A stretch of DNA of 62,504 bases, the filler included, from Phoronis australis (taxonomy: Eukaryota; Animalia; Phoronida), in the NCBI GenBank assembly GCA_002633005.1. It is 5 parts of 5 records of this genome, joined end to end, with 100 filler letters (N's around TTAATTAATTAA, not from the genome) between each part and the next. Parts side by side here need not be neighbours in the genome. Positions count along the whole stretch, not along the records: positions 1 to 21,093 come from NMRA01000417.1; 4 more parts are not named here. One strand, written 5' to 3'. A program made the translations under genes and the position numbers. Positions 1-53,606 of this stretch are shown in pieces. Below the pieces are notes generated by a model. The model was not told where the DNA came from, ran no database searches, and saw nothing but the letters and a program-made list of their open reading frames with translations. The first letter of the stretch is position 1. Each line of letters starts with the position of its first letter.

Positions 1-1024
1 GTATGGCAACTCTGAAGCAGATTGTGTTGAACGTCTTAGCCGATGAGCTTAACACTAACAGTCCTTCCTATGATAGTATTAGGGACGTGACAAAAAATTT
101 CAAATTCTTATTTAATATTTAAAAATGCATTGATTTAAAAAAACATCAAAAACAGAGTCAAACAAAAAAAAAATTAACAAAATCCATTAAGCCGTTGACT
201 TTTTATGAACGTTTGAAGAGCGAAAATTAGCCCTTTTTTTTAGTCCTCTGAATACATGGGAGTAAATGCGCATTCATGTGACCCAAAATTAGTTTTTTCA
301 CAATAACTTTCTTAATACTTTTAAGAACAGCGTGAAAATTTCAGGATACGACAATCCTTGTATTTACTTAGTGAGAGACATTTTTAAGACAACAAAAATT
401 CCAAATTCCAAAATGGCGGACAATATGGCCACCATTATGATTGCAAAAGCGTCTTATTTTTACGTTAACAAACTATATGGTGTAATATACCATTAACAAA
501 CTATATGGTGTAATATATCAAATAATAGGTCTTTTAATTGCTTTTTTGACAAGAATGATTAAAAATTTTTTTAAAATATATAGGCAAGATTTTCGACATT
601 TCCGCAATAGCTCCCAAAATTACTGCATTAACGACCACCAGAAGAGATTGATTCAACAACCATGATGTACATGTAAGATATGAAATTAAAGGTGATTTTA
701 TAAACTGCAAGGATATCAAATAAGTGTTATGCATACATGTTTATTTTGTACAAAATGGCTGCCAAAATGGCTACCATCAATAAAACAAAAGTAGTTAGTA
801 ATATAATTTTACAAGACAAATGAAATCAAAATGAAATTTGTTCAACTTTAAGAACAAACTTGGGTTCGATCTGCATCAAGACAACCCAGAGGTTCAAAAC
901 TACATCTGTAACAAATACAAGGGTGCACAGAGTGCATCACATAGAGCACAGATACAAGGGATGCTCAATATTTTAATCCCACAACGGGGAGCAATGCGAA
1001 TGGAGCAAATGAACTCGAAACTTT

Positions 1025-1420
1025 AAAAATTCCCACTAGGTGACGCAGAATACATCAAATATGTCTGAAAATGGCAAGGCATTGTAGTCTCTTTAACAGA
1101 AACCTAACTACTAAGTTTCATGAAAATCCATCTATGAACTCTGAAGATACACAGGAAAACCTACAAAAAGTTGCCTCTGGGGGGGAACACCAATTGTTGG
1201 ATTGGTCTAGAACTCCTCATCCTATGTTGTCAGCAACCTCCAAAATAAACAGCCGCCAACTTCCACAAAGTTCTTGCAAAAAGCAAATTCTCAACTAGGG
1301 GGCGCCAGAGTAGTCAAACCCATTCGAACGTCAGCTGCAGTCTCCTCAGTAGGAACACACCTGCCAATTTTCAGAATGATTCTTTAAGTGGTTTGGCAGA
1401 TAGAAAAGCAGACACTAACA
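1025..1420 (-). repeat. Fragment of the HINE internal repeat family inside the transposon 3' region
   Basis: 1295-1317 (actagggggcgccagagtagtc) is the reverse complement of the motif at about 16303-16325. It also has the reverse complement of the gattttcatgaaa motif seen in the HINE units. Confidence 0.6.
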
Positions 1421-1497
1421 AATTGACTTGAAAATTCAAAATATGGCCATATAAATGTGTGGGTGTATTATAACAACCAGGATAACATAACTCCAAA

Positions 1498-3565
1498 CTA
1501 GCAAAAGTACAAGTCATTTGAGATGAAGTCCGCAGCCAGCTCGTACTTGGGCACATCATAGTCAACAGCCTCCTCTTCACTTTCACAGCTATCTTTCCAA
1601 TAACTAACACAATAAACCTCCTTCTGTTTTATCAACTTCATAACTTTACCATTGTATATGCTTCTTTCCCCTTCATCGAGCCACACATGTAAAATATTTC
1701 TGCCAACTATCAGTCCTTCCATAATATCTTTCACAGATTCTCTAACAGACAATTCATACGCACCAAGATCTTTGTCTACATTGAATGTTGCACTCTTCAA
1801 TCTCTTTTCTAACTTTCTACGACTTTGCATTTCCCTTTTCCTTGCTTTTTCCTGCATTCTTTTTTTCAACTCCCTAGTTACTTCCGTTTTCCAGCTTCTT
1901 TTTGAATCACGCTGCTTTCGAGCAATGTTAATACACATTCCGACGAGATCTTCACGACTTTTCTGATTCATGCCGTCCAGCTTCATTACAACTTTGTTTT
2001 TTTTAGCTCTAATTTTGGAGGAATGATAATCAAGTGTTGCACTAGGTGCCTTGCTCTGAGCAGCGCTAAACATGCCCATGACTTCCTCACTGTCCATATT
2101 ATGCAGGCGTGCGGAAGAAATAACTTCTTGAAAATCTGCGTCTGTTTTCAGACTGAAGTAGCGAGTGTATTGTCGTTCCAGCACAGACACAATGCCATCT
2201 AGACAGGACACCATCATCTTGTTAAACAAAGCCAGGTTGGATGGGACACTTTGGAGGCAAGCCAGACGTTCATCATGAGTCAAAACTTCACCAAATACGT
2301 CGTGAGCTGTGGTGAGAGTACGACCAGGGCTAGCTTTCAATTCACTGCAGCAGGTGATGGCAGTCTTGACAAACCCGAAAGCTTCAACATGGTTCACATT
2401 GCCCGCTGGCTTGTAGTAGCGTTTCATCCATGGCCCAGACAGCAAAACACAAACCAGGCCAAGCACCTGAAATTCAATTCGGGCAATTTCTGTGCCAAAA
2501 TCTGCGGCCAACGCTTTCTGTAATGTAGCACAATTAAGTAAAGATTCATTTAAAAACTTCTGGAAAACATCATAATACTGATAATATTTAGCAGAAATAT
2601 CAAACAGGATGTGGAGCCGATTTCCTCGATATCGTGGAATGAAAGTGCTGCCGAGCTGGGAGTCATTAAGCCACAACTTAAAAGCTTTAGGATCTCCCTT
2701 ACCATCTTTGTATCTCACTGTGTTCATGGCCCATATGATATTAGCTGCCATGCATTCACGGCCAAAAACTTTGCCTTGACCCTGTTCTTGTGCCTTAAGG
2801 TTGCCCCTGCACATACTGGCAATGGTATCCAAGGGATGAAGGTTGCAGTTTAGCTCATTTAACATTTTCCCCCATTCTGACTCCAACAAAGAAATCGCTG
2901 CATGGTTTACAGGTGCCCGATCTGACATGGTATTGTCAATGTTCTTTATAATTTGCAAACGACAATCTTCGAATGGTAAATTATACACAGAAGAATAAAC
3001 AGATGCAATGTGTCGTATGGTGTTATTAACATGCCCTGCGTAGTCTGCAGCCGTTCCACCAGGTAGCTCATCTACAGACATCACTAGAGTTTCTTCCTTT
3101 GTGGTGACATGCACACTGTTTATGTGCACCCCTTCCTGAGTGGTTGCATCAAAACCCACCGTAAGGTGGGGTACGGTCATCAGGGTCTCCCCTACAAGAA
3201 GGTCGGACAAAGCACCCAGTTCGCGTGTCATGAGCTCCACTGTGTTCCGGTGAGGTAAAGAGTCCACTTGAACACCAACTCGGTTCAGGATGCTACCGAT
3301 TAAAACAGATGCATTGTTAGTTGGTACATTATTCACAATTCCATCGTAGAACATAAGCCTCAGTTCAGTGGGATATGACTTTGACTTCTGAAATGAGGTC
3401 CCAACATCACTTTCTTTTTGAGATTTCACTATGTCTTCTAATTCTTCAACATTCTCTTGGAGCTGCTCATTTCTCTGTTGGAGTTCAGCGATGCGCTGGT
3501 CATTTGCCCTGAGTGATGGATCAGGAGTGTGACTTCTTGAGCGTTGGCTCCTTAATTTGTAATAC
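1498..3565 (-). CDS. Transposase coding exon 2: DDE/RNase H-like core with CxxH, plus C-terminal Tudor/Spindlin-like segment (spliced product 937 aa)
   Basis: Acceptor tatttcag|G at 3566/3565 completes the AG|G Arg codon, so phases match; 746+2068 = 2814 nt. Motifs: VGFDATT (D1), MSDRAPVN (D2), NCNLHPLD (CxxH), GNRLHILF, HNMDSEEVMG (E). C-terminus IVGRNILHVW...YNGKV...YCVSYW. Confidence 0.85.
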
Positions 3566-3791
3566 CTGAAATACATAAATATTGATAAGTTCCTTTCGTA
3601 ATCACTTTTTAACATAAAAAAATTAAAAAGCACACTTTTGAATGAGAAACATTTGCGTTTTTAGAGATTTATATTTGTATAAGCAATGACCCTGGTTTTC
3701 TAATGTATCATTACAAGATATGTATACACAAAGTTCACTTTATTTTGCTTACATTCAAAGTATAACTTTCACTCAAACAACATGTACAAAC

Positions 3792-4537
3792 CTCTTCATT
3801 TTACGGTGGGTATTTCTCAGCCTAGCCAATTCAGCCTGAAGTTTCCCACACTGACTTCGTCGTAGTTCACTGATTACTTTATTCTTTTGTTCAATGGTAA
3901 GTTTCTGGCGCTTTATCTGCTGTGTCAAATGCTTGATCTGGCATACTTTTGTAGACTTCAATGAAGACTTGAGATCACGAATGGTTTTCTTGTACTTAAG
4001 CTTTTCAGCAGACTTTTCCTTTGAAACATACTGTAGTCGTCTCTTTAGTTTTTGTTTCCTAGGTGTTAGGGCTTCTGGCTTAGAGGATCTTGTTGAGGTG
4101 GATGGCTCTGATTCAGCTGAAGGGCCAGCTTCAAGCTCTGGTTGTGTCAGTTCAGGAGATTCAGGTTCATGGTGAGGGTCAGCAACCTCGCAAGACACAG
4201 GTTCTTGACTGGGTTCAGGAACAAGAGGAAACAACTCTTCGCACACTTCTTTAAACTGGGACATGCTTTTTTCATTTGAAAGTGATTGATACTTCTTTAG
4301 TGACCTATTCACCAGCGATATAATGTTGCTTGCAGTAATTTTCCAATTACCGATAAGTTTACGTTTTAAAGTTAACACTGTCTCTGTCTGGGATTTGTTG
4401 CACTGCAGGAACACATAGAGGGCATGACCATTTTTCAGGTTTTCACTGGGAACAGCGCTGAAGTTCTCTTGAAGGAACTGTCTCGCTTTGCCAGGTTGAG
4501 ATGGAGCTGACAACTTTCTTCTTTTTTTTGGAGACAT
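3792..4537 (-). CDS. Transposase coding exon 1 (NLS, acidic/Pro linker, coiled coil)
   Basis: Acceptor ttttcag|a precedes ATG at 4537, giving MSPKKRRKLS (SV40-like NLS). The Lys-rich heptad region ends at donor AG|gtttgt at 3792/3791 (phase 2). Confidence 0.8.
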
Positions 4538-6145
4538 TCTGAAAATATAAAGAAAGACATGTAAGAAATAAGATACCAATGTACAGTGTCATAATATATT
4601 TGTTGTACACGAAATGATTCAGACTGCCTTTTCCTGTAACTACAATTAAACACTCATTACAAAACCTCGAACTAAAGTTTGGAATTTTTCACACTGATGT
4701 CCAACACAGTGAAAAACATGCTACTTAAATGAGCAACACATAACAAAAAAATAACATTTTCGATGAGGCGTTTAGTGTTCACAAAGTGCATTGATTTATC
4801 ATTTTTTTAAAAATTAAACAGTTCCTTTCCTTAATAAGTGTACTTCAAGAACTTGGAAACTACATATGTAAAACTTCTCCAGTTGTAGGCAAAATATGTC
4901 AGGCAAGTGTAATTATATTTTGTCAAATACCTCATAAACTTAAAGGAATCAATGTTTACTTTGATGTACCCACTCAATGATTTTCCAAGCACTAGCAACG
5001 AACTTAACTTTTGAAAGAATGACAATATCAGCAACTATTCTTGTCCCAAACTGAAGAATTTTTTAAACATGTATGATTAGAAAATCATTACATGTTATTC
5101 ATGGAAAAAATCAACAAAAACACTACTGTCATATAGAATTGACAAACTGAGGGTTTACTTCCTAAAAAACAGTAAAACATGGCAATATTGTGAAGAAAAC
5201 CTGGCCAAAAATCACAATATAAACATTCATTATCAAGAATTCGGGTTTTGAGCCAATCAAATGTCTTGGATTTGGTCACGTGACCAGAATTCGCCGGACA
5301 AAGACTACCTATAATAAGCCTTACTAACTCGTCGATTTTCAAAAAATATCAATGAAAATATATAGAACGTCATCCAAGTTGATCACTTCCGCTATTAATT
5401 TACATAAAATAGTCATTCTACCTAATTTAAGGGCAATTGTTAACCATGAACTGCCATGCTGACACTGGGTCTGTCATGGCTGGTCAGCGAGAATGCCTGC
5501 CTCGGGTCTTAACTTTCACGGAGTTAGCAGATCATGATACGGTGAATTGATTGGAATGAAATTTGGTGAACAGTTGCAAGAGATATAAAAAAAGAAAACA
5601 TATTACATTTCATAAGAATCAATGGCTTACCTTTCAAAATACAAGCTGTCAAACAGGAGCGAAAATTTCCCCCAACTTCTCACCAGTCACATGCTTTAAC
5701 AAGAATGAAAACACAACAAAGAAAATGACGTATGCCTAGAAGAATTTACTGTCTACGTCATCAATAATGTGGTTCCCTGTTTTCTTGGTTTCTGGAGGAG
5801 AGAGAGTGGAAATACTATAGCCACCGTGAAACAATGGCTGTCTAATCGATAATCGCCATTACGCAACATCTGGGAAAAGCCAATCAGCGTTGAGATAAGA
5901 CTTTGTCACGTCCCTAGCTTGCATGATGCGGATTCTCATTCTATTTCTGATTCTCATCGCCAATAGATTCTCCCTAATATTTCTAAAAATCTTGAATTGC
6001 CACTTATGGCATAAGTGACTTATGCCAATTTCAGCTTCTGTTGTGTGTACTTCAGAGGTAAAAAGCTGTATACTAAACTAACCTTGGTGCAAAGCTGTAT
6101 ACTTAAACATAAGTGTACAAGTTTGTGTCAAGCTGTATAGACACC

Positions 6146-7077
6146 GGTGACCTAAAGTCGTGAATATAAGCATAATAAGTGCCGATTGTCACACTACCCA
6201 ATGTCCGTTAGCAACTGCTCATGTGATGTCATGGACATATATCAGCCTTCACAAATATACGTGTTTTGACAATCTTAATCCTTGTTTGTCTCCGTAAGCA
6301 GAGTTTTGAAACGGTCGCTGATATCTCCGGCCATTTTGAATGAGGCCCTAAAGTCGTGACCGTTTCGGTTAGACGGAAATACACGAAGTAAGACCACACA
6401 AGTCAACTACAGTGCGTACAGTTACTCTAGATGAAATAAAAATGCATTGCATTGTTTATTAATTCAGTTGCAATTGAAATAAATTGTTATATGTTTTGCA
6501 CCCAACTTTGATGTGCACAGACGTTTTCAATGAGGTTGTTCACATAAAACGCTAAGGACCCAGCATCAATTATCTCTCTGTATTTTATTGCTTTGGCCTT
6601 ACAAAACTTTATTGACCCTGGGACATTTTGATACATTGTTCAAGCTACCCCTGGAGCTCGTGTTTGAGTAAATCTGAACAATGAATATTTNGTTCACGTA
6701 AAACGCTAAGGACCCAGCATCAATTATCTCTCTGTATTTTATTGCTTTGGCCTTACAAAACTTTATCAACCCTGGGACATTTTGATACATTGTTCAAGCT
6801 ACCCCTGGAGCTCGTGTTTGAGTAAATCTGAACAATGAATATTTTCGAAAATATATCCCAAAAATGCTCAAAAAAGTGGATTAGCGAAATATGCTGTTTT
6901 TAAGATACATTTGAAAAAAGAAGCCACTCACTCACTGTTTGTTATCATATTGTGAATACCAAGACGTCCGGGTGTTTGTTTGACGTTCGCAAGCAGACGA
7001 ACGCTGGAAACTTCAACGCCAGATGTCGCGGGACCGCGCAGATGAGGAAATAAGTTCGTTCACGACTTTAGGGCACT
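6146..7077. mobile_element. Non-autonomous TIR element (MITE)
   Basis: ggtgacctaaagtcgtgaa (6146-6164) versus ttcacgactttagggcact (7059-7077): 17/19 inverted match. A further internal copy lies near 6345. No clean TSD. Confidence 0.55.
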
Positions 7078-7210
7078 AACGACTTAGTTTAGGCCTAGGG
7101 CCTCTGATGGTACCTGGCAAGGCTATCCCAACCCCAACTAACTGCTAAAAAGTAAAGGTCTGATTTTGGCACGAGAGGTTGTAATACGGCTTTTGAACTA
7201 CTGCCTACCC

Positions 7211-7960
7211 TAGCCTTGGTACAAAGCTGTATGTAAATATACAGCTTTGCACCGATGTGGGTAAAAAAGTGGTAAGATAAAATCTGACACAAAATTAGTG
7301 TCATTAAAAACTACAGTCTTCCTTGAGTAAACAAAATTATCTAACAGTGTTGGAAAAAATGGCGTTCTACCGTTATTCTGCTGCTAAAGTTGTGGAGCGA
7401 TCTTTAGCGACGGCTTTCGGCGCCATGAAATATTGCGTCACCTATTGGCCAGTTTCTTTTTTCGCCGATTCTTCAATCAACTGCTGTTCTTTCACGAGCT
7501 TGCGTACACGTCACAAAAAATTATTGGAACTGGTTTCACTTCATTATAATTTTTTAGAATTCCGGTACCGAAAAACCGAATTTCAGAACAAATTTTGCTT
7601 ATCCGAAGTTGTCGCGAAAATTTAGGAAATGGCGCGTGCGCATGACACGAGCGCATTGTTTTCGAAACGACGACATACTTTTCACTGTTAGAAAAGGCGG
7701 AGAGTTACGCAAGAAAATGACGTTTATTGCATTGTTTTTCACTTAAACGGCTGTAACGGGCAAGGTAAGTATCGGTTGATTCCCAGATTTTGCATGCACT
7801 CCGTCCTGTCTTAGCTTTACATTTTGATACAAATTTCTCGGCGCGGTGACGAGCAGAAGTACCCTGGCTGTGTGCAATTTAGGGGTCTACGGAAGAAATA
7901 CACGCAGTGGGACCTAGCTGTATTTTGACGACAGTCATCATACAGCTAGCTGGCTGGCTA
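7211..7960. mobile_element. Dispersed non-autonomous repeat with TAGCC...GGCTA ends; partial copy at 29193-29370
   Basis: Starts tagccttggtacaaagctgtat...atacagctttgcacc (internal palindrome). About 180 bp recur at 29193-29370. The putative right end is catacagctagctggctggcta. Confidence 0.45.
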
Positions 7961-8759: not shown

Positions 8760-11700
8760 CCTAGGCCAGGTAAGTTCGGGTTAATAATAATATCCGACGA
8801 AACCACCTAGCTCGACTTGCTTAGGGTGGGGGAAACCCGGACAGCGGTAAAATACGGACAAGTCTAAATAAACGTCAAATATATTAATAACCAAGATGCC
8901 TTACCACTAAATGAAAAGATTATTCATAAGGTAGGGGAAGTTCGGGTAAATGCAGACGAAACCACCTAGTTTTGAACAATAGTAGGGATTTATTTATCAC
9001 CTCACTTGAATTACAACAAAGTTTCAACAGATATGAGGCATGTTCAGCAATGTAGTAAATGTCGACGTCAGTCTCAGCTGTGGCGTCTCTGTTGTATAGT
9101 CCGGGTACCTATCGTCGTCAGGCTCCAAAGGTCGTCCGCCATCTTGTTTCGCATGCAGCGCAACCACGCGGGACTTAGCGTTCCAATTTGGAGTGCTCGT
9201 CTGCACGTTAGGTACTAACCTCTCGGGAGAAACACGCATGGAAGAACTGAGACTAAAACTAATGCATTTACCGACTCTTTTTTGAGACCACTTAAAAACT
9301 TGTAGATTTTACTAATGCACTTTTTTGTTCATTTTCAGAAGATATTTTCGAAACTAAATTTTCTTCAGACGGAACAAAAAGCAACTCAGGGGTTGTTTAT
9401 GCAATGTATCTATTTCTCCCAGGCACTAACCGACATCTGTTTGGCCAAAGGAAAAACGCAGCAGACAAATGGATCACGCTGGGTGCTTAACAGTTTCAGC
9501 CCACGCCTTAGTCATCAAAATATTGTTTACTTGTTTTTTATATTGCCACACAAAGTACTGAGCTCAACATTTATGTTGAAATTTTTGGTTAAAGCATTTT
9601 GAATTTATTTCAAGAAAATTAAAATACTTGAATTGATAGAGAATGGCCACCAATAAAGTAAAACATTGACTTTATTTCACTATATTGCAATTGTTACATA
9701 CAACACAGCATGACATAATCAAAAATAAAAGAAGAGATTGAGCAATAAAATTCAAATGCGACTTGGGTATTTATTTATTTATTTATGATTGCATAAGCCT
9801 GTTAAAGATGAGAAAAAAATCAAACAATACGATTATGGGTAATTTATTAGAACAATTGTATTGAGGTTCAATGATCAACTTGCGCCGACAAAGTCTCAAA
9901 GGGTTATACTTCTGTTCTGGCTGACAAGGTGTTAACAGAAAATGAAGAGAAACTGAAAAGAAAAAATAAGACAGCAACGAGAAGTGGTGTTAAGTACAAC
10001 AAGATCAAAAAGTCAAATAAAGAGGTCACAAACAGAAATAAGTAAGGTATATCTGGAATAAAACAATCCAGGGCTCAGCCGTGATTTATTTTCCAGAACT
10101 GAAATTCTAAATCAATTTTAATCGATTTAAAAATCGATATCATACTAGTAAAGCAGTTTGTGGTTGAAGTAGAATTGTTGTATACCACTTTCCACTATTT
10201 TCTTGGCCTTTTTCTTTGTGGTTTGCTGTTCTTTCAAAAGGCGGCAGCATATGACGACCATAGGTGTCGTTATAAAATGGCTGCCGAAAAGCAATGCACA
10301 GTTGAACAACTCGGCATAAGTAAAAGAAAACGTTTGAATCAACGAATACTATATATTTGTGAGAGTTAAATCAAATCCTATTCAGATCATAACTTTGAAG
10401 TGGAATGATTGGGTAAGTACGACAACAAGCCGGTTTTATGCTTAGGCGGACGACCATTGGGTTCCCGAGTATAATAAAGTCGGCTGCCTAGCAGACACAC
10501 ATGTTCGGGCCTATTAACACGGTGCAAGAGAAAACTCCGGAGTATACTCACATTACGTCCGTACAGGACGGCAGCGAACTCCAGAAGGCCCAGACGATCT
10601 TGTCACGTGGTCTTGATGGGCGACTCGTCACGTGATAGATGGGTGACCTCGGCTGGGCTCTTCTGGCGTTAGATGTCGTACCAGGCCAAGACCAACATTG
10701 TTAACAAAAGGACATCACAACATAGAGACGCCACAGCCGACATTTACTACATCTCTATGTTGTGATGTCCTTTTCGTTACAATGTTGGTCTTGGCATGGT
10801 GCGACACAGTGTTGTATTAGTTGGCTGCAGCTACTGCTACAGTCAAACAGGTTCGGCCTATTGAACACGGTGAAGAGTAAAGTCTAGAGTGTACTTACAT
10901 CACATCCGCACGGGACGGCCACAAACTCCAGAAACCCCAGATGATCTTATCAAGTGGTCCTGAGAGGTGACTGGTCACGTGATGACAGGGTGACCTCTGC
11001 TGGGCACTTCTGACATCAGGTGTCGCACAATGCCAAGACCAACATTGTAACGAAAAGGACATCACAACATGGAGACGCCACAGCTGATACTGACGTCGAC
11101 ATTTACTACAGCACCTTATGTCGCTCTGCCGTCTGCTTCGCGTGGTGATTTCGAAAGTCTGCAGTAGGTACACTGTCTTTCCAAGTTTTATTTAGGTCAC
11201 TTGGTCACTTGTCATGTAAATGAACTTGAATTTACTTGATGCATAATTCATCACTATGCAGTTTTATGTGTTAATTCCAATACAAAATCTTACAAAAAGC
11301 ATGATTTGACAAAAAAAAACTTGTGTCTGAAATTTCCCCTCCAACTTTTTGTATGTTGCGGTGTTTTTAGGCTACTAGATGCTTTTCTTGACGTTTTCTT
11401 GAGAGATTTTCGTAATCAGGTGATGACCTTCTGTTTTAAGAAGTCAATCTAAAACTTAATTTGTCAACAACAAATGCGCTGTCTACCACGTGGGCTGCAC
11501 ACAAATTGGTAAGGGCGGATGTACTTTTACGTTGTTTATGTGGCCAGGACATGATATGATGACTTCTTAAATTTTGTTATTCGTCTGATGATAAGACTGC
11601 TAAATAATACCTAAATTCATTTTTTGAAATCATAAAGTTAGTACTGTTATATATTTTGTCCGAGTTTTACCTATTCAGAATTTGCTGGTCCGATTTTCCC

Positions 11701-11761: not shown

Positions 11762-14122
11762 ATTCGATTTAACTGCCCACTGCTCGGTTAACCGCCCTCC
11801 CCCGATTTTTTAAGAGTTCCAGTTAAGCGCCCACCTCTCGGTTAAGCGCCCACCCCGACTTTTAAAGAATGAAGATTTAGCGCCTAGTGCTAAGGAAACG
11901 CGCGATTCCCCGACTTTTAGAAAAAGTTCGATGATCACAATGAGTGCAACGACGCCGGGACTCCGAGATGGTGGTTTAGCAATCTGAATCACAATACAGG
12001 TAAAGAGTTATTGTCTTGGGTCATGAACTCACTTCAAAATACTTGAACGTTTTTGTCACTTTATTTTCTTCCCTTGTTTGCAAAGTTTAAGAACGCCGCC
12101 GGCGTCAAAACCCTCCGCTTTCAGCGACTTTGTCTGCCGCACTGAGTTTCCGTCTGCAGTGCATTAGATAAAACATATTTTCGAAAAAATCAGGCCAGAG
12201 AAATGTGACAATGGTTTTGCCAAACCTCCAAATTCTATTAAGGTGGGAAGCTCTCGTATTTTGAACAAATCTCACAACTCACGGAAAGACGTCAAATTCT
12301 CAATATTTTGATGAATATAACTGCCGGGTTATAGAGGATGCGGGGAGACCGAAGGGACAGTACAAGTGCCTTACTGGGTTACCGATTTCGTTGCTGCCTG
12401 TCGATTTCTGAATTCAAACGTTGGCAATAATGTATGTTTGTGTATGATCTTGAAGTAATAAAAAACGGCTAGTCAAATTTTGTTTTTCGCTTATTGCATC
12501 TCAGTCAAACTGGTTAGCAGATTCGACTAATGTCGCTGGCTGTTCTTTACTATTTCTTGTGTCAGCCCCCACGTAAGCGTGACTGTGTGAATTATCGTTT
12601 CCACATCCCCTTTTTAGCCATCCGGAATAGTTTTGTTCATACATTGGCCATTTTCAGCCTGAACAAAAATTCTTACCATTCGAGTCTGAAATATCTACGA
12701 CGTAGACTGCTTGACGATAGTGGGTAGGAGATTCACGCAGCTAGTTACAGGGATGGGCTTAGGGAGCATCGAGCCGGGAAATATGGGAATAGACTTGACA
12801 TCGCAGTTTTGGGGAACATTGGCAACGGAGGAATATCGTAAAGAACTGGGTCTTTCGTAACAACAGCTTAAAAGTACATAGTCACGCCCGTTTTTGTTAC
12901 TTCGTCGGACTGTCGCTATGTGTGACTGATTTGTAGTGGTGCACGTGCGCAAGTTCCCACACTTTGGAGTGCATGTTACCTTGACACCAACATGTGATTG
13001 ACAGGTGACTCACACGTAGGCCCTACGTGCGTGCTGAACACCGCCACTATCTTTGGCCATAAAAAACGAGATGCATATTGAAAGAGGCCGTTATATTACT
13101 TGACGGCATTTCCAAGTCACGATTGTCAGCCGACTGAGACATTGCGCGATAACAGCGGGACCGAACAGTGCCGCAGTGCGATATTACAAGTGATATAAAT
13201 AGGATAATCTGGACATCTTACATGAAAAATAAATGTTTTTCCACCACGAAGTTTGGTAAGGTGATCGTTTAGAATAATGAATTGAAACATTGCTGTTTTC
13301 TGACATTTTGTAACATATTTATGCAGTTGCTTGAAATTTTATTCTTGATCGACGACTGGCTCGACCACCCCCGATCCTTGTCTTACTTCTTTGCATAGCA
13401 TGTTTGGCGCAACGGCAAGAGAGCAATGCCGGGCTGTCGAGATAAGACAGCTAGCCGCAGAACCATACGCTGAAAATGTCATTGAGTCACGGAGTGTCGA
13501 CTATAACATCCCAAACACAAAAAACAACAGAGTTAAGTTTTTCAAACTTTTATTACAACCAATTTTAAAACTGCTCTCTGACTCAGAACTTGACAGCTAC
13601 ATATAGTACGAGACTGTAACCATAAATTTGATGTCTGACCTCTGCAACACGTGAAGCTTGCACGCGCGCACTTAAGCAGGGTCACATCTTGAAACAGTTT
13701 TAATTCTAGTGGAGGCTGCGTGGTGACTGGTCGTCTGCGCACCGCAGGACGGCACGGGGCTATTACTCAGCAATTTTGTAAATTTAATAGTGAATGACTA
13801 ATCTGAGGGCAAGAGAACCTTTGTTGGGATCATCCGCTGTTATGACGTTTTCACAGTCACTTAGCGACGTGACGATAAAGCTCTTTGAAAAGGGCTACGC
13901 GTTCCGAGTATGAGTGTCGTGTCGGGATTTAGATCGCCAGGTAAGATTAACCGCCGAGGGCGGTTGACTGTCGTAATAAGCGCCCATGTTCGGTTAACCG
14001 CCCTTCTCCTACTTTAGGTGGATTTTCGATTTTACCGCCCACTGCTCGGTTAACCGCCCTCCCCCGATTTTTTGGGTTCGCCAATTTAACCGCCCAGGGC
14101 ATTAACCCGAACGATTACGGTA
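11762..14122. mobile_element. Tc1/mariner-pogo-like non-autonomous element, left TIR missing
   Basis: Right end ...cgattacgg|TA at 14122. Subterminal ttaa(g/c)cgccc repeats occur at both ends. A roughly 48-bp direct repeat lies at 11763-11810 and 14025-14072. Confidence 0.5.
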
Positions 14123-15052
14123 TGAACAACAATCTGAATTGGATCTCGATCCGAAATGTGATTAACTTTCTGTTCTGGCCTTGCTAAAATGCTGCTTACT
14201 TTATCCCTAGCCTTTCTTTTGCTTAGACATGCAGCCTTTATATGACCTTTCTTGTGACAGAAATGGCATTCAGTCTCTTTAAAACGACAATCCATTGCCG
14301 CAACTGGGACATCTTCCCTTTGGAAAATACCTAAACTTCTGTGCTTTGCTCTGCCTGCTTTCTTCCCTCCTTTTCTTTTGTAACTTAAGCACTGGATCTC
14401 CGTAAACCGTTTCTTTTGCAATTTTAGACGCCTCTTCAATTTCTGCTGCTATTTCTATGGCTTTCTTAAAAGATAATTCATCATCTTTTATTTTGAAAAG
14501 GGCTTTTATTAGGACCGCCTCATTATTAATTCAACAAATAAATCTTATTCTCATAGCTTCATCCTGAGGATCCGTTGTTGTTGGAAAATCGCATTTTGCA
14601 GCGTCTTGTCGAATGCTAGCTCCTGTATTGTCTCACCTGGCTGTCTTCTTGTGTTAGACCAAAATTTGAATTGCTCCCAGACTACAAAATACTTCGAATT
14701 GAATTGATTCTCCATAAATGTTGTAATTTTATTGATTGTCAGTTGATTGATATCCTTGGAAGGTGTCTGCTGCTCTGCCAAAGTTGCAAGCAACTTATCA
14801 ACCCTATATGTCTGATTCATCAAGAAAGTTTGTGAAACTTTTTCTTAGGTATGGAGTGTGCAAATGTTTGGAATCTGGACCAATAACCCTTCCAGAGTTC
14901 CACTGAACTGTCGAACGCACCAAAAGTTGGCGTAGATGTCGTTGGTTGGTGCATCAGCCTACTAGTGATCATCTCGGCAAAACGCTGATCATTCTGTTAC
15001 TGTTGGTTGATTTGTTGTTGTAATAACGAAATAATGCCAGCCAACTCACCCA
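14123..15052 (-). pseudogene. Degenerate Ty3/Gypsy gag fragment
   Basis: Frameshifted pieces: FDSSVELWKGYWSRF, LLATLAEQQTPSKDINQLT..QFNSKYFVVWEQFKFWS..RQPGETIQEL, and the zinc knuckle CHFCHKKGHIKAAC. Confidence 0.8.
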
Positions 15053-15921: not shown

Positions 15922-17306
15922 GCGTACGGTGTCCGCTGCTCTATCTCCAAAACCCTTTGATACATGTTCATGAAGTTTGCACATGTTCCATTCATGAATG
16001 GGACGGCATGAGTGAACTTTCGGACGGAGCCAACTACCATTGTGTCCCCTAGTGGCAATTTTAATTTTTTATTTTCATGAAATTTGGTATGTAGGCACCT
16101 ATTAGTGAGATGACGCCATCCTCCCATCTTCTGATGGATTCGAAGTAGTTTGCGCCACCTAGTGGCCATTTTTACTGTTTTCGATTCTGTTTTTTGCGTC
16201 CACCCCTCTATCAACCAAACCGCTCAAAGGATGATTGTGAAAATTAGCATGTATGTGCTTACTATGAAGAGAATGGTTGACGATGATTTTCTGACAGTTT
16301 CGACTACTCTGGCGCCCCCTAGTGACAGTTTTTTTGCGCCTGTGACTGTATCTCCTAAACCATTCGCAGGATCTTTACGAAATTTAGTTAGTTTATTTAT
16401 ATGATGTTAACAACGGACGAAGACGACTTTTGGACAGATCCAACTACCGGTGTGCCCCCTAGTGGCAAGTTTATTTTTTACGTTTACCTTTGTATCTTCA
16501 AATTTAAAGTCCTTAACGGATTTTTATGAAATTTAATGTGTAGGCACCTATTAGTGAGGTGACGCTATCCTCCCGTTTTTATATGGATTCGACGTAGTTT
16601 GCGCCACCTGTGGCCATTTTTACTGTTTTCGGGTCTGTTTTTTACGTCCACCCCTCTATCAACCAAACCGCTCAAAGGATGAATGTGGAAATTGGCATGT
16701 ATGTGCTTACTATAAAGAGGATGATTGACGATGATTTTCCGACGATTTCAACTACTGTGGTGCATCCTAGTGGCAGTTTTGTTTTTGTTATCTTTTCAAT
16801 TCATCTCTAACAACTAGTCAATTTAAACAAAGGCCCATTGCTACCTATAGGCCTAATCCACTAGCTGCTCAGTAGGCGTGCAGTCCGGCTCCAAAGTCGC
16901 TGAGAATAGATGGGTTTTCATCTGAAGAATGAGTTTGTGGCAATCCTGAAAATTATGGGAATTTGAAAGTTGCAAGCATTTGATAATTCAATTGATATCT
17001 TTTTAGAAATATTGGTTATCATCAACAGGACTAACACTCCCATCCAATTAGATGGAAAACGCACATGAATGGTTTTGTTTACCCTACCTAATTTGCATTC
17101 ATAAGGGAGGACTCGCATATTGTGCAGTTTTTACAGGAGTTCTGGTAGTGCAGAAGTTCAATATGTTGTACCATATTCAGAACATCGAATTCAGACTATA
17201 AGAATGCTGTGCAAAACATTACACTTACAGACCGAGGTAAGATGTAGACTCTGCTATCAAGACATAATAATGTGACTGACTTTGCAAAGACACTTCACTT
17301 GGACTG

Positions 17307-18202: not shown

Positions 18203-19779
18203 GACTGTCTACATCATGGGAAAAGTTTAATTCTGTGTAAGACTTTTTGTGCTTAGTTGACTATTGATATCACAATTATTGAGTAGCTTAAAGGAGAATG
18301 CCACCCGATTTAATTAGTCTTTTTGCTGTCTTAATCGGTCTATATCCACATTACCTCGCATACGGTCGACCTTACCTCACCAAGAGGTGTCGCGTTAACC
18401 TGTGAGGAAGGTGAGAAACGACGCTAGAGACGTCAGTGGTTGATATGCAGAGTGAATGCCGCTATGTTGCGGTGCATCGTTCCCGCTTGTCCGAACTAAG
18501 CAGCTGCGAGGAAAGTGGGTATATCGTTTTTTTTTACTTCCTCGTGAGTCCGAAATGCTTAGGAAGTGACTCATGGTAGTAAAGAATGAAATGTACACTG
18601 TAAATAGCAAGTATGAGGCCGTGAAACATCTCCGTGTCTGTGGCAGTGCCTGACGACTGCCGGCTTACCAAATAACTCCATACGTTCCGTTGTCTGAGCT
18701 TGTTCACGGCGCCTCTCTAGTATTTCTTCATCACTGTATTCCTGTTTGAATTGATAGCCTTTAAAACTTAACGATCCACCTGCGAAGTCAGGACTGATGA
18801 GCTCTAGCTCATCCTAAGTCAGGATTGCGAGTTGCCATGTTGGCGTTTATTACTGAGCGTTCTGTTTCAAAATGAATTATTCTCACCCTAACCAATACTT
18901 ATATAAAACTTAAACAAAGTCTGTCTCATTAGATGCAATTTGTAATGCCTTTGGAGTGTTTGTGAGTGCAGATGATTTGAGAAGCCAGCAATTAATAAAT
19001 CACTGCGTTACTGGCTTTAGGTGCAGTTTTTACGAATGCGACCTGTTTAGATTTTCAGATGTGGAGAACACTGTTATATGAAGTTGACTATGGATGACGA
19101 CGACTTTCGGACAGATCTGATTACTGCTGTGCCCCCTAGTGGCAATTTTAGTTTTTTACGTTTAACTCAGTATCTTCAAAGGTCCTGAACAGATTTTCAT
19201 AAAATTTTAAATATAGGCATCTATTGGTGTGATGACCCTATCTTTCTGTATTTGGATGGAATCGACGTATTTTGCACCATCTAGTGACCATTTTTGCTGT
19301 TTTCAAATCTTGTTTTTGGTGTCCAGCACTGTATCAACCAAATCATTTCAAAATTGGCATATATGTTCTCAGTGTGAAGACGACCTTTGATGATGGTGAC
19401 TGACTACTGTGGCACCTCCTAGTGGTAGTTTTGTTTTGCACCCATAGTTGTATCTCTTAAACCCACTGCAGGATCTTTACTAAATTTAGTAAGTATATTT
19501 ATATGAAGATAACAGACGGCGACTTTCAGGCGAATCCAGCGGACACTGTGCCGACTAGTGGCAATTTCATGTTATTCTATTTTCCTTTGTTTCTCTGAAG
19601 TTCCTTGACAGATTTTTATGAAATATGGCATGTTCCTGTTTTTGGATGGATTGTATGTTTTTGCGCCATCTAGTGGCCATTTTTATGATACAAATAAATA
19701 ACCCTAAAAGCACACCATTTGCAATGCATTCGTGGGCGCATTTCATCGCTCCGTGTTGCTCTTGTTTTATATCCTGCCT

Positions 19780-21093: not shown

Positions 21094-21193
21094 NNNNNNN
21101 NNNNNNNNNNNNNNNNNNNNNNNNNNNNNNNNNNNNNTTAATTAATTAANNNNNNNNNNNNNNNNNNNNNNNNNNNNNNNNNNNNNNNNNNNN
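21094..21193. other. Artificial scaffold linker N44-TTAATTAATTAA-N44
   Basis: Exactly 100 bp, with stop codons in all six frames. Identical linkers occur at 26091, 53507 and 60003. Confidence 0.97.
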
Positions 21194-26090: not shown

Positions 26091-26190
26091 NNNNNNNNNN
26101 NNNNNNNNNNNNNNNNNNNNNNNNNNNNNNNNNNTTAATTAATTAANNNNNNNNNNNNNNNNNNNNNNNNNNNNNNNNNNNNNNNNNNNN
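26091..26190. other. Artificial scaffold linker
   Basis: N44-TTAATTAATTAA-N44. Confidence 0.97.
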
Positions 26191-35242: not shown

Positions 35243-36485
35243 TTTTTTATGCGCCGACATATTTATATATGGAAGCATTATGCTGTCATCTCCATCCGTC
35301 CGTCCTGCGTCCGCTGCTCTTTCTCCAAAACTTCTTGATGTATGTTCATAAAGTTTTGCTCATGTGTTCCTTCCGTCGATGCCCCTAGTGGCAATTTTAT
35401 TTTTTACGTTTACCTCAGACTGTATCTTCAAAAGTCCTGAACGGATTTTCATAAAATTCGGTATGTAGGCACCTATTAGTGAGATGACGCTATCCTCTTG
35501 TATTCGGATGGATGTGACGTAGTTTGCACCACCTAGTGGCCATTTTTAATGTTTTTGAGTTTGTTTTTTTCGTCCACCCCTCCATCAACCAAACCACTCA
35601 AAGAATGATTGTAAAAATGGGCATGTACGTTCCTATTAGGAAGTGGACGGTTATGGTTGATTTTCCGACTTCGACTACTGTGGCGCAGTGCCTCTTAGTG
35701 GCAGTTTTGTTTTTTTTGCACCTATGCCTGTATCTCCTAAACCGTTCGCAGGATCTTTACTAAATTTAGTAAGTGTATTCACTGATGTTAACAACTGATG
35801 ACGACGACTTTCGGACAAATGTGACTTCTGATGTGCCCCCTAGTTACAATTTTAGTTTTTTACATTTAACTCTGTATGTTCAAAAGTCCTCTACATATTT
35901 TCATAAAATTTTAAATACAGCCATCTATTGGTGAGGTGACGCTATCCTCTTGTTTTTGGATGGAATTGAGGTATTTTACGCCACCTGGTGGCCATTTTTG
36001 CTGTTTTCAAATTTTGTTTTTGGCGTCCACCCCTCTATCAACCAAATCATTCTAAGGATGGTTTTAAAAATTGGCGTATATGTTCTCAGTGTGAAGGGGA
36101 CGTTTGATGATGGCGACTGACTACTGTGGTGCCTCCTAGTGGTAGTTTTGTTTTGTTTCGCGCCCATAGCTGTTTCTTCTAAACCCACTGCAGGATCTTT
36201 ATTAAATTTAGTGGGTGTATTTATAATGAAGATAACAACAGATGACTATGACTTTCAGGTGGATCCAACAGACACTGTGCCCACTTAAGTGGCAATTTCA
36301 TTTTATTCTGTTTTCTTTTGTTTCTCTGAAGTTATGAAATATGTATGGCATGTTCCCGTTTTTGGATGGATTGTACATTTTTGTGCCATCTAGTGGCCAT
36401 TTTTATGATACAAGTAAATAACCCTAAAAGCACACCATTTGTGATGCATTCGTGGGCGCATTTCAACGCTCCGCATTGCTCTTGT
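35243..36485 (+). mobile_element. HINE/DINE-1-like element, copy 2 (complete, ~1.24 kb)
   Basis: ttttttt-ATGCGCCGAC ... ccatccgtccgtcc ... internal tandem units ... GTGGGCGCAT (36452-36461), then hairpin caacgc-tcc-gcattg and a CTTGT end. Confidence 0.8.
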
Positions 36486-37840: not shown

Positions 37841-39665
37841 TTTTTTATCTTGTCAAGTTTACTTCAAAACATTCCAACTACAGGAGTTTTTTTGTTTTTT
37901 TTACTTGTGATAAATAAACAATTCAAAACAGATAAGCCGTAGTTATGTGGCCAGAGAGTGACACTCAAACAATATGGTCCCAGTTGGCCCTTCCCTCTGT
38001 AGGGTCACAGTATTGCACTCTAGATGTATTATAGGGGGTCCTGACACAGGTGTGGTAAGCATCTGGTATTGGTCAGTTCTGCACCTTCCACATACAGTAT
38101 TTAGTGATTTGTGAGCCTCATCTTGTGTGCCTGGCTAGAATCAGGAAATTCTGCTTCAGACTGGATATCAGTACCTCAAATAAAGACCAACATCCTGAAT
38201 GGACGAATGCTTGACAATACATAATTCATTTTTTCCAACCAGAAAAAAAATCACGACTTTTCAACGAAATAAATGCATTGTTGATTAACTGAAGGGTATT
38301 CAAAAATGTACTGGCACATTATTACAAGAGTTCAAAGTTAGTTCCTGTGGATCAGACTGTGTGCTTGGGTTACTGTTACACCTTGCTGTAAAGGTACAGA
38401 CCTAATCTGTTGCTCTTTAGGCATGTGAATGGCAAACGACTGGTCTTTGTAGAAAGAAAGTTTATTGTGAAACGCTATCGACAAGAAAGACAATAGATCA
38501 TCTTTCCAAGTTAATTAACAATGCATTTATAATTTTGTTTTATTGTAGGAGTTCCTTTCTGACCAACCTATTCTCCAGAAGTTCCTTTCTGTCCCCCTCT
38601 TTATGAATTTAGACCAGTAATGTTGTTCCTTAGTCATTAAAATATGCAGTTTTAATTTGTCTCAGAAACTCAAAAGTTTTTTCATGAAAATCATATAAGT
38701 GCTATTTGTTGATAGACCATCTTGCAAAAGTGGAAAAATAATTATTCATGTCTGCGTTTTAGAGAACAGCATAAAGCATGTGAATTTGATCAGTCATTTC
38801 TGAGGTATGATGGTCTAAAGTTTGCCAAATTTGGACATTTTTAGGTCCTATATAACCTTAAACTGTTTAATTTCTTTGCTAGTAAAAAGTAACGAGTTCT
38901 TAATTACAATAACCCGTTGACTGCTTTCACAGGTAATTACAGAATCTCGTAAGTTGTGATTTTCTGTTAGTCAACAGGTATGGATAGTAAAACATTCATA
39001 AGAACTTTTTATTTTGTTTTTTCATTGCAGATAAAAGCAACACATTGTCTTTTCTTTCAATGTTTGTCCATTAAATCTACAACACATTTTCATTTCATTC
39101 ACACTTAAATTGCCCCATGCTTTAAGTTTAAAGGGATACTAAACCCTGTTTTGATGATTTCAACCAATCCTCGTTCTGTCACTTGCTAATGCATTATTGG
39201 TGAAAAGCTTCTAAGTTAAAGGCAGGAACCTGCTTAAAACGAATACTCCTTATGTTACACATTGGACATTATAGTCCTGCCCGTTTAGCAGACTTTGAAG
39301 GGAGTTTCCAAAATTTCCTCCAAACTTTTGAGGGTTGTTGAGAGTTACAGAACATTATTTTGCTTCAGAGAACTGGATTGGAAAGTCATTCCTATGTACC
39401 CACATATTGCCGTCATCTTTGTCTAGGAGTTCGTTTTCTGCGCCATGTGGTGGCAATTTAAAAAAAATGGAGTATATATTTTTACGTCTGCCATCCTATA
39501 TGCCAATCTGCTCATAGGATGATTATGAAAATTGGAAGATGTGACCCTGATGAGAAGACGGCAGCTGACACTGATTTTCGGACGGGCTCGACTGCTGTGG
39601 CGACCCCCAATGGCATTTTACTTGGCAGAATTCTTCAAATGCCAACAAGTATGTTGGTCATCCAT

Positions 39666-41790: not shown

Positions 41791-42025
41791 TCGTTTGTTT
41801 TTTGCGTCCATAGCTGTATCTCCTTTACTCTTTAGACAATCTTTGTGAAAATTGGCTGATATGTTCCTATGATGATGATAATGAATGACTGAGTTTTAGA
41901 CCAACCCGGTTACATATTTGCCCCTTAATGACAGCTTTAGCTTTTTACGTTTGCATCTGTAGTCTGTATCTTCTGATCGAGTTCCTTAATGGATGTTCAT
42001 GAAATTTAGCATATAGGTTGTTATT

Positions 42026-51850: not shown

Positions 51851-51865
51851 GTGTTTTACCACCGG

Positions 51866-53506
51866 AAGTCAGTGGAGGCCACTAGAAGCCAGTGGAGGCC
51901 ACTTCTTGCCAATGCAGGCCACTGGAAGACAGTGGAGGACAAAGCAGGCCACTGCAGGACACTGGAGGCCACTGGAGACAAGTGAAGATCACTGGAGGCC
52001 AGTGAGGGCCACTGACGGACAGTGCAGGCCACTGGAGGTTCTTGGAGGCCAGTGGAGGTCACTGGAGGGCGGTACAGACCACTGGCGGCAATTGGAGACC
52101 ACGGGCGGCTAGTGGATGCCACACTGGAGGCCAATGCAGGCCAGTGGAAAGCACTGGAGTCCAGTGGAGTCCACTGGAGGCCATTGGAGGCCGGTAGAAA
52201 ACACTGGACGCCAGTGGAAGACATAGGAAGCCACTGGAGAAAAATGGGGGGCAGTGGAGACCACTGGAGGATATTGGAGGCCACTGGACGCCAGTGGAGG
52301 CCAGTGGAGGTCATTGGAGGCCATTGAAGGCCAATAGAAGCCAGTGGAGGCCTGTGGAGGTCCGTGCACGCACCGGAGGCTACTAGAGGGCACGGGAGGA
52401 TACTGGAGGGCACTGGAGGACATTGTAGGCAGCTGGAGGCCAGTGGATGCCAGTGGCGGACAGTGAAGGCAAGTAGATGCACGTGGAGGCCAATGGAGGC
52501 CAGTGCAGGACAGTGGGGGCCACTCGAAGCCAGTGCAGGCCAGTGGAGGCCATTGGAAGCCAGGGGACGTCAATGGGGCCATTGGAGGGCAGTGGAGGCT
52601 AGGCGATGCCAGTGGAGGCCACTGGACGCAAGTGGAGGGCAGTGGAGGCTAGTGGAGACCACTGGAGGCCAGTGCAGGATCTTGGAGGTCTGTAAAGGCC
52701 AGTGGGGGCCAGTGGAGGCCAGTGGAAGCAAGTGGAGGACAGTGGAGGCTAGTGGAGACCAGCGGAGGCCACTGGAAGCCAGTGGAGTCCAGTGCAGTCC
52801 AGTGGAGGCCAGTCTAGGCCAGTCGAGGCCAGTGGAGGCCAGTGGAGGTCAGTGGAATCCAGTGGAGGCCAGCGGAGGCCACTCGAGGGCAGTGGAGGAC
52901 ACTATAGGCCACTAGAATTCAGTGGAGGCCAATGGAGGCAAGCGGAGGACAGTGGAGGCCAAGGGAGGTTAGTGGAGGCCAGTGGAGGCCAAGGGAGGCC
53001 AGTGGAGGCCAGTGGAGTCCAGTGGAGGACAGCGCAGCCCCGTGGAGTACATTGGAGGCCAGTGAAGGCGAGTGGAGGCCAGCGGAGGCCCTTGGGGGCC
53101 TGTAAAGGCCAGTGGGGACCAGTGGAGGCCACTGGAGGCCAGTGGAGGACAGAGGAGGCCAGTGGAGTCTAGTGGAGGCCAGTCTAGGGTAGTGGAGGCT
53201 AGTGGAGGCCAGTCTAGGCCAGTGGAGGCCAGTGGAGACCAGTGGAGGCCAGTGGAAGCCAGTGGAGTCTAGTGGAGGCCAGTGCAGGCCAGTGGATGCC
53301 ACTGGAGGCCAGTCGAGGCCAGTGGAGTCTATTGGAGGCCAGTGGAGGCCAGTCGAGGCCAGTGGAGGCCAGTGAAGAGCAGTGGAGGCTAGTATAGGCC
53401 ACTGGAGGCCAGTGGAGGCCCTTTGAGGCTAGTGGAGGGCTGTGGAGGCCGGTTGAGGCCAGTGGAGGCCGGTGAAAACCAGTGGAGGCCAGTGGAGGCC
53501 AGCGGA
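51866..53506. repeat. GC-rich 10-bp satellite (CCAGTGGAGG / CCACTGGAGG)n, running into the gap
   Basis: More than 150 tandem units are visible. It explains all the overlapping low-complexity ORFs on both strands. Confidence 0.97.
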
Positions 53507-53606
53507 NNNNNNNNNNNNNNNNNNNNNNNNNNNNNNNNNNNNNNNNNNNNTTAATTAATTAANNNNNNNNNNNNNNNNNNNNNNNNNNNNNNNNNNNNNN
53601 NNNNNN
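53507..53606. other. Artificial scaffold linker
   Basis: N44-TTAATTAATTAA-N44. Confidence 0.97.

Follow-up and report, generated by a model that had tools for sequence, protein, structure and literature searches.

The number of target bases duplicated when a DNA transposon inserts mirrors the spacing of the active sites on the target DNA and is used for transposon classification. Duplications of 4-10 bp are described for the groups with a C/DxxH transposase (PMC3706591, PMC10045372); the hAT superfamily usually duplicates 8 bp, with groups at 5, 6, and 7 bp (PMC12730594), and its terminal inverted repeats (TIRs) are given as 10-25 bp (PMC3942097). The locus reported here is an intact 5.8-kb transposon at positions 82-5914 of a stretch of Phoronis australis (Phoronida) DNA from assembly GCA_002633005.1, called the window below, which comprises 62,504 nt including filler and whose positions 1-21,093 come from NMRA01000417.1. 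The transposon is real, intact, and young; its enzyme is predicted to have the hAT fold and probably has a Tudor domain, and in all three complete elements (the window element and its relatives L008 and L012) the footprint is unlike that of hAT. It is read here, at a probability of about 0.5, as a cut-and-paste transposon of a widespread animal lineage with hAT architecture, a Tudor-like domain, a duplication of TA only, and ends GG...CC; TA as the target duplication was in itself rated an even bet. The odds for the footprint readings are a judgement and were not computed. Feature coordinates are collected in Table 1.

No perfect inverted repeat around the gene is longer than the 15 nt at 80-94 / 5902-5916, which consist of TA plus a 13-bp TIR starting GGGACGTG, as the first-pass annotation of this DNA had described. 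An inverted repeat of at least 15 nt between the two flanking regions arose in 3 of 300 composition-matched simulations, and no other copy of the TIR 13-mer with fewer than two mismatches was found in the window.

The transposase gene was read on the minus strand from an ATG at 4537 through a GT..AG intron (3791-3566) to a stop at 1498-1500, giving 937 aa; both exons read through without an internal stop, in agreement with the spliced frame reported earlier. Alternative donor/acceptor pairs also preserve the frame, and the exact splice is a predicted one, backed by full-length colinear alignment with single-ORF (open reading frame) relatives. The motifs D..D..CNLH..GNRLHILF..E were located at aa 385, 462, 489, 563, and 738, and conservation of the residues in Table 1 was counted in 78 aligned sequences. 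The catalytic glutamate had been placed in NMDSEE; the motif is present, and the residue was narrowed to the first E of SEE (E742). The distance from the second aspartate to the glutamate is 278 aa, close to the 280 aa first estimated. The residue after R565 is L, F, or I in 78/78 and may occupy the position of the hairpin tryptophan W319 of Hermes, a correspondence for which the fold searches gave no residue-level pairing.

No transposase was matched in sequence searches of Pfam and PDB. The AlphaFold model of exon 2 (predicted local distance difference test, pLDDT, 91) shows an RNase H core carrying a long helical insertion, with CxxH immediately behind strand 5 and the glutamate located in the closing helix; together with the Hermes match, it places the catalytic residues on an RNase H DDE fold. 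Hermes was the top match both in Foldseek (E 3.7e-6) and in VIA (Z 16.9, root-mean-square deviation [rmsd] 4.2, 345 aligned), where the next row scored Z 10.8 and ISCth4, Mos1, and RAG scored 9.9, 7.2, and 6.6; a second structural comparison with Hermes gave Z 18.7 and rmsd 3.4 over 342 residues. The first-pass annotation had assigned the protein to the C/DxxH class as a whole (hAT, Mutator, P, Kolobok, and Dada); the CxxH DDE part of that assignment stood, and the fold is not equally like all of these groups and is specifically like hAT (Hermes). From the model, the transposase is predicted to have hAT architecture and to function like hAT, yet the element lacks several features by which hAT membership is judged, namely PF05699, a BED zinc finger, and a 5-9-bp duplication. 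The PF05699 hAT dimerisation domain was found neither in the window protein nor in 28 distant relatives, and it was not among the 25 of 41 Pfam families listed for 33 family members; the structural match nevertheless reaches Hermes residue 609, although PF05699 is undetected by sequence. BED, common and not universal in hAT, had no match in exon 1.

Described hAT elements (Hermes; Ac, Buster, Tip, and hAT5/6/7) share with the window element the RNase H DDE core, the helical insertion after strand 5, CxxH, short TIRs (13-15 bp here), and a length of about 4-6 kb. The window protein differs from theirs in having ~10% identity, no PF05699 or BED match, a C-terminal Tudor-like domain, and L/F at the putative tryptophan position, and none of the three elements shows a 5-9-bp duplication, with the reservation that flanks may be mismatched. 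hATm, with TAGGGTG termini, an 8-9-bp duplication, and PF05699 (PMC6004678), resembles the window element in its hAT fold and, if TA is counted, in TAGG at both ends; it was rejected on the TAGGGAC or TAGGTAT found here and on the lack of an 8-9-bp duplication and of PF05699. hATx-6 is described with BED, PF05699, and an 8-bp duplication (PMC8721813), and hATx was rejected because the window protein has no match to either domain and the element has no 8-bp duplication. Kolobok elements have RR...YY termini, a TTAA duplication, and, in most lineages, an inner zinc finger (PMC9587614). The window element shares with them C/DxxH, RR...YY termini (GG...CC here), and a target of T and A only; Kolobok was rejected on the absence of a TTAA duplication, an inner zinc finger, and a Pfam Mutator-like transposase match. 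The motifs of the family were absent from the KolobokP supplements, which hold gapped alignments, and the fold lists held no Kolobok row. Tc1/mariner elements likewise have TA on both sides; they were rejected on their compact DD34E core without an insertion domain, set against the 278-aa spacing and the Mos1 score here. The P element was rejected on its VIA score (Z 8.3, rmsd 7.5, 330 aligned, against 16.9 for Hermes), and Dada, described without TIRs and with insertion into small RNA genes and a 6-7-bp duplication (PMC3706591), on the TIRs of the window element. ESTA and PHISTA are TA-duplicating lineages of the EnSpm/Transib and Harbinger groups in fungi (PMC12730594); they arose inside other superfamilies and thus give a precedent for a switch to TA, and the window lineage would be their hAT-group counterpart in animals. 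PMC4455052 was also among the comparison literature. No TA-duplicating hAT lineage or Spindlin-Tudor transposase was described in the literature searched, which excluded Repbase Reports and most subscription journals.

Of 7,993 candidate proteins scored, 178 match exon 2; the best 120 of these have 36-49% identity to it. They come from molluscs, echinoderms, Hydra, hagfish, bony fish, a copepod, a sea spider, and a priapulid, with homologues numerous in Hydra and present in Caligus, and nearly all are uncharacterised and without Pfam domains. A profile search with E no higher than 0.001 extended to 3,996 cluster representatives, and no relatives were found in viral or prokaryotic contigs. The tree was built from 68 of 299 proteins (71 were hand-picked by name and distance, of which 3 were left out for their shortness; of the 299, 188 had the full core) and has no named outgroup; the window protein falls with P0070 and P0121 in a 22-row clade (100/99), the clade in which L008 and L012 are placed, beside more distant subgroups. 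hATw, a Repbase/Dfam label for elements with a 7-bp duplication not seen here, has proteins that presumably resemble the distant GNRFNILF subgroup of the tree. The hATw label is reported from Hydra, amphioxus, and Caligus (PMC12905397, PMC13465017). A search by motif and label in the supplements of three papers returned no sequence of the window family or of hATw. A Repbase name for the family, hATw above all, is quite possible because Hydra has many intact copies and has been closely catalogued. Matches in the Atlas to hAT Pfam families all scored below 0.9 and serve as leads only; a Basidiomycota cluster of 808-aa hypothetical proteins (feature score 0.88) is a lead to fungal relatives. Members from Oryzias, Misgurnus, Scleropages, and Anabarilius have 41-44% identity to the window protein, like those from molluscs and echinoderms, and the patchy host spread might come from horizontal transfer. 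Three gene models (P0047, P0052, and P0231) join a family protein to other domains: BTB (PF00651) in the sea spider, an unrelated C-terminus in Oryzias, which we take to resemble SARM1, and a piggyBac-type domain. These fusions may be annotation artefacts.

The last 75 residues were modelled as a beta barrel (pLDDT 95) that likely has a Tudor-type fold. The barrel was matched to the RDM15 Tudor (Z 7.5, rmsd 1.8, 58 aligned) and to Spindlin-4 (Z 7.2, rmsd 3.0, 66 aligned), and Spindlin-4 was also the best PDB sequence match of the C-terminus (E 0.036). Among the 28 distant relatives, the Spin-Ssty profile exceeded the Pfam cut-off in the C-terminus of one, P0296 (32 vs 25 bits), whose Spin-Ssty part aligns with the family C-terminus (E 3.7e-4), and one further relative had a weak Agenet match. 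The profile does not pass the cut-off in the window protein. Two points speak against the assignment: all Tudor Z-scores are below 8, and a domain of the unrelated TraI ties with Spindlin-4 (Z 7.2, rmsd 2.3, 65 aligned). Conserved H, W, Y, Y-W, and D-Y residues in the barrel may form an aromatic pocket for histone reading. Fusions of Chromo and PHD domains to transposons are known, including one in a sponge hAT (bioRxiv 2021.11.30.470311).

Forty-three metagenome loci of the family were examined for ends. The short TIRs were missed by exact inverted-repeat search (32/43 loci) and by self-BLAST (20/43) and were found by a relaxed motif search. Both TIRs surround an intact intronless ORF at two loci, L008, whose TIR starts GGTATGTG, and L012 (GGGACG), so that the terminus shared with the window is GG[GT]A[CT]G; TA stands on both sides of each. 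With the boundary set at GG, TA/TA is the sole perfect duplication in all three elements, and no duplication of 4-11 bp was found in any of them at a GG, AGG, or TAGG boundary. The TA flanks without a longer duplication noted in the window therefore recur in both relatives, and the footprint is a trait of the lineage. Among 48 matches to GG[GT]A[CT]G outside coding regions, TA precedes seven, namely the six ends that form pairs plus the 3' end of L005 (itself recognised partly by the same motif), and none of the 41 others. The flanks of L008 are rich in AATTC (2.3 and 3.8 per 100 nt; 0.24 within the element) and, lying in one such tract, are probably true partners; at this site, a single retained TA restores a fourth local ATAATTC copy. 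The context TAT-TA-GC is common to the window and L012, with the elements in opposite orientations. Further TIR-pattern scans returned no stretches in some data and, elsewhere, 18 matches in phage coding sequence that lack TA and do not resemble the element. At L004, one of the loci with an older copy, the arms of a 370-nt inverted repeat (2956-3313 / 10674-11040) enclose that copy, as might result from insertion into the centre of a fold-back element.

The restored repeat of L008 would be explained equally well by GG...CC ends inserted bluntly into TATA. The empty site would then hold TA, contrary to the contigs described below that resume at 5917, and this reading, taken together with that of a domesticated or dead gene with incidental ends, is considered very improbable. 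For a domesticated gene, 12 coding differences between the window and other samples, drawn from a longer table, include eight synonymous changes and no stop, a pattern that would suit a maintained protein of either kind; conservation of the TIRs across elements with 37-41% identity and the abundance of deleted derivatives point to mobility.

Contigs of four DNA runs from one study were compared with positions 1-6500 of the window, and 15 of the 29 joints are listed. Copies in the four other samples are 99% identical to the window element, with 12/2,435, 16/2,797, 9/2,529, and 34/3,201 letters different in the coding core. Word depth, which is not copy number, stays at 35-65 across the core and climbs to hundreds or thousands at the ends, and internally deleted derivatives keep the element ends. 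The 99% identity and the abundant derivatives indicate that the family is young, as had been proposed, and fit a young autonomous element with many derivatives. Three contigs of X2 run through the right end, TA, and one more base before diverging, which fits either a TA inside or a TA outside the element.

The same contigs and some of the flanks weigh against a TA duplication. In two of the four runs (X3 record 21 and X4 record 29), the right flank is rejoined at exactly 5917, right after TA, with other letters ahead of it (77 or 2,104); an empty site that retained TA should fit from 5915. If these contigs are empty sites, TA belongs to the element and not to the target; alternatively, a shared TA was assigned to a left piece that is not listed. 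Contigs of all four runs leave the left flank of the window after position 72, and no joint from left to right flank is among those listed, so that the two flanks of the window may come from different loci. The first-pass annotation had seen no longer direct repeat in the flanks. The 8-mers outside TA are indeed not identical, yet they agree at 5/8 positions (chance ~0.03, single test), and the eighth outward base is a pyrimidine in all six flanks long enough to read; both observations hint weakly at an 8-bp site. In L008, the match at the AGG boundary is 3/3; L012, whose left flank is only 5 nt, has a 3/3 partial match at length 12 that is at chance level among many tests. No clean TIR pair was found at 41 of the 43 loci. 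In the older subfamily (L004, L013, and L029), the ends are decayed and give no usable pair, with TA three times and CA once (L029); hAT termini of the form YAG would give such TA/CA ends, and the TAGG terminus shared with hATm belongs with these points.

A rival reading is that of a divergent hAT, possibly hATw or a nearby group, whose termini would be TAGG...CCTA (15 bp) and whose normal duplication of 7-9 bp would be hidden by assembled flanks that stem from different insertions. The joints at 5917, the odd left flank in a gapped short-read scaffold, TAGG/CAGG ends that suit hAT termini, the 8-mer agreement with its eighth-base bias, the hAT fold, and the hATw label in Hydra and Caligus, both hosts of homologues, all favour it. 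The scaffold carrying the window has many gaps, and its signs of gapped short-read assembly are a 153-nt tandem copy around a single N (6538-6844) and 100-nt gaps of N plus TTAATTAATTAA spacer at 21094-21193, 26091-26190, and 53507-53606. A hidden duplication would require mismatched flanks in all three intact elements, including L008 with its one shared tract, and the 7-bp comparison outside TAGG gave only 0/7, 2/7, and 2/3 matches; we regard it as unlikely, though worth serious consideration. If it were true, the empty allele would lack TA and have a different left flank ending before GCTTGCAT.

A blunt target cut, with TAGG...CCTA ends inserted without any duplication, would explain both the repeat-free flanks of the three elements and the contigs that rejoin at 5917 without TA, and it has a precedent in another superfamily, in Spy of the PIF/Harbinger group (PMC4122938). 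The C/DxxH transposases described in PMC3706591, with their 4-10-bp duplications, offer no such precedent; dropping both TAs also breaks the ATAATTC repeat of L008, and the 15 joints listed of 29 do not include the expected one from 79 to 5917. Insertion without duplication was rated improbable.

Under the preferred reading, that of a TA-duplicating transposon with a hAT-type enzyme, transposition would proceed by analogy with Hermes and Kat1 (PMC4763223, PMC7780238). The enzyme would pair two transposon ends, the DDE triad and the CxxH histidine would do the cutting, and excision would leave hairpins on the flanks before the ends are joined to the target; deleted copies would be moved by the same enzyme. 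Integration would take place at TA with a 2-nt stagger, and the predicted Tudor-like domain may bind methylated histone or other chromatin. Handling of the hairpin may differ if L/F occupies the W319 position; in Kat1, the tryptophan is given as not essential (PMC4763223).

Table 1. Features of the window element and of two related elements; positions refer to the window except in the last two rows.
Feature	Position	Strand	Basis or remark
Left flank; possibly not the true partner of the right flank; contigs of 4/4 runs diverge after 72	1..79	.	
TA outside left TIR (target duplication or first 2 bases of terminus)	80..81	.	Inverted-repeat and boundary comparison
Left TIR, 13 bp, downstream end of gene	82..94	+	Inverted-repeat search
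Stretch absent from abundant internally deleted derivative (joint 1169 to 3872)	1170..3871	.	Contigs in 2/4 runs, word depth about 530-550
Exon 2 of transposase, aa 249-937 and stop	1498..3565	-	ORF; 178 homologues
Tudor/Spindlin-like beta barrel, aa about 862-937	1501..1728	-	Predicted fold
RNase H core and alpha-helical insertion domain, superposes on Hermes 135-609	1972..3276	-	AlphaFold model
Catalytic E742	2086..2088	-	Kept in 78/78
R565 of GNRLH motif, followed by L, not aromatic W	2617..2619	-	R565 in 78/78; equivalence to Hermes R318-W319 putative
C489xxH492 motif	2836..2847	-	C489 and H492 each in 78/78
Catalytic D464	2920..2922	-	Kept in 77/78
Catalytic D388	3148..3150	-	Kept in 77/78
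GT..AG intron, 226 nt	3566..3791	-	Predicted from frame and intronless homologues
Exon 1 of transposase, aa 1-249	3792..4537	-	34% identity to P0012, E 6e-29 (N-terminus of relatives)
Right TIR, 13 bp, upstream end of gene	5902..5914	-	Inverted-repeat search
TA outside right TIR	5915..5916	.	Inverted-repeat and boundary comparison
L008 element, ORF 929 aa	130-4333		41% identity to window protein
L012 element, ORF 943 aa	6-3973		37% identity to window protein

Other repeats were observed in the window. Fragments 67-82% alike to the subterminal region 1018-1450 lie at 16071-16771, 19132-19207, 35382-35635, 39486-39607, and 41832-42019 and are probably related non-autonomous elements or a shared repeat. 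Nested 14-16-nt inverted repeats of very high contig depth begin 170 nt past the right end of the element (6086-7253) and likely represent a miniature inverted-repeat transposable element. An element of ~2 kb at 9051-11110 has 22-nt TG...CA inverted repeats, which we take to be Ginger-like termini, and an inner 41-nt inverted repeat (10757-11070). Decayed frames resembling those of long terminal repeat retrotransposons were seen at 14086-14448 and 56433-58725 (a zinc knuckle and a reverse-transcriptase-like piece), and a GC-rich tandem array at 51856-53428.

Pfam has no model for the family, and its members are annotated as uncharacterised proteins in hosts ranging from Hydra to fish. A further-reaching proposal, put forward tentatively and with more doubt than belief, is that it forms a still undescribed branch of the hAT clan, spread across animals, that has given up the 8-bp staggered insertion for a TA duplication or none, has lost the hairpin tryptophan, and has gained a Spindlin-type Tudor domain to steer insertion via histone marks. 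If true, an enzyme of the Hermes fold with a 2-bp duplication or none would show how one scaffold can accommodate a rebuilt geometry of target joining, and many of the TA-flanked non-autonomous elements now classed as Tc1/mariner would belong to a hAT-like partner. A domain of the chromatin-reader type carried across a whole transposase lineage would be a natural targeting module.

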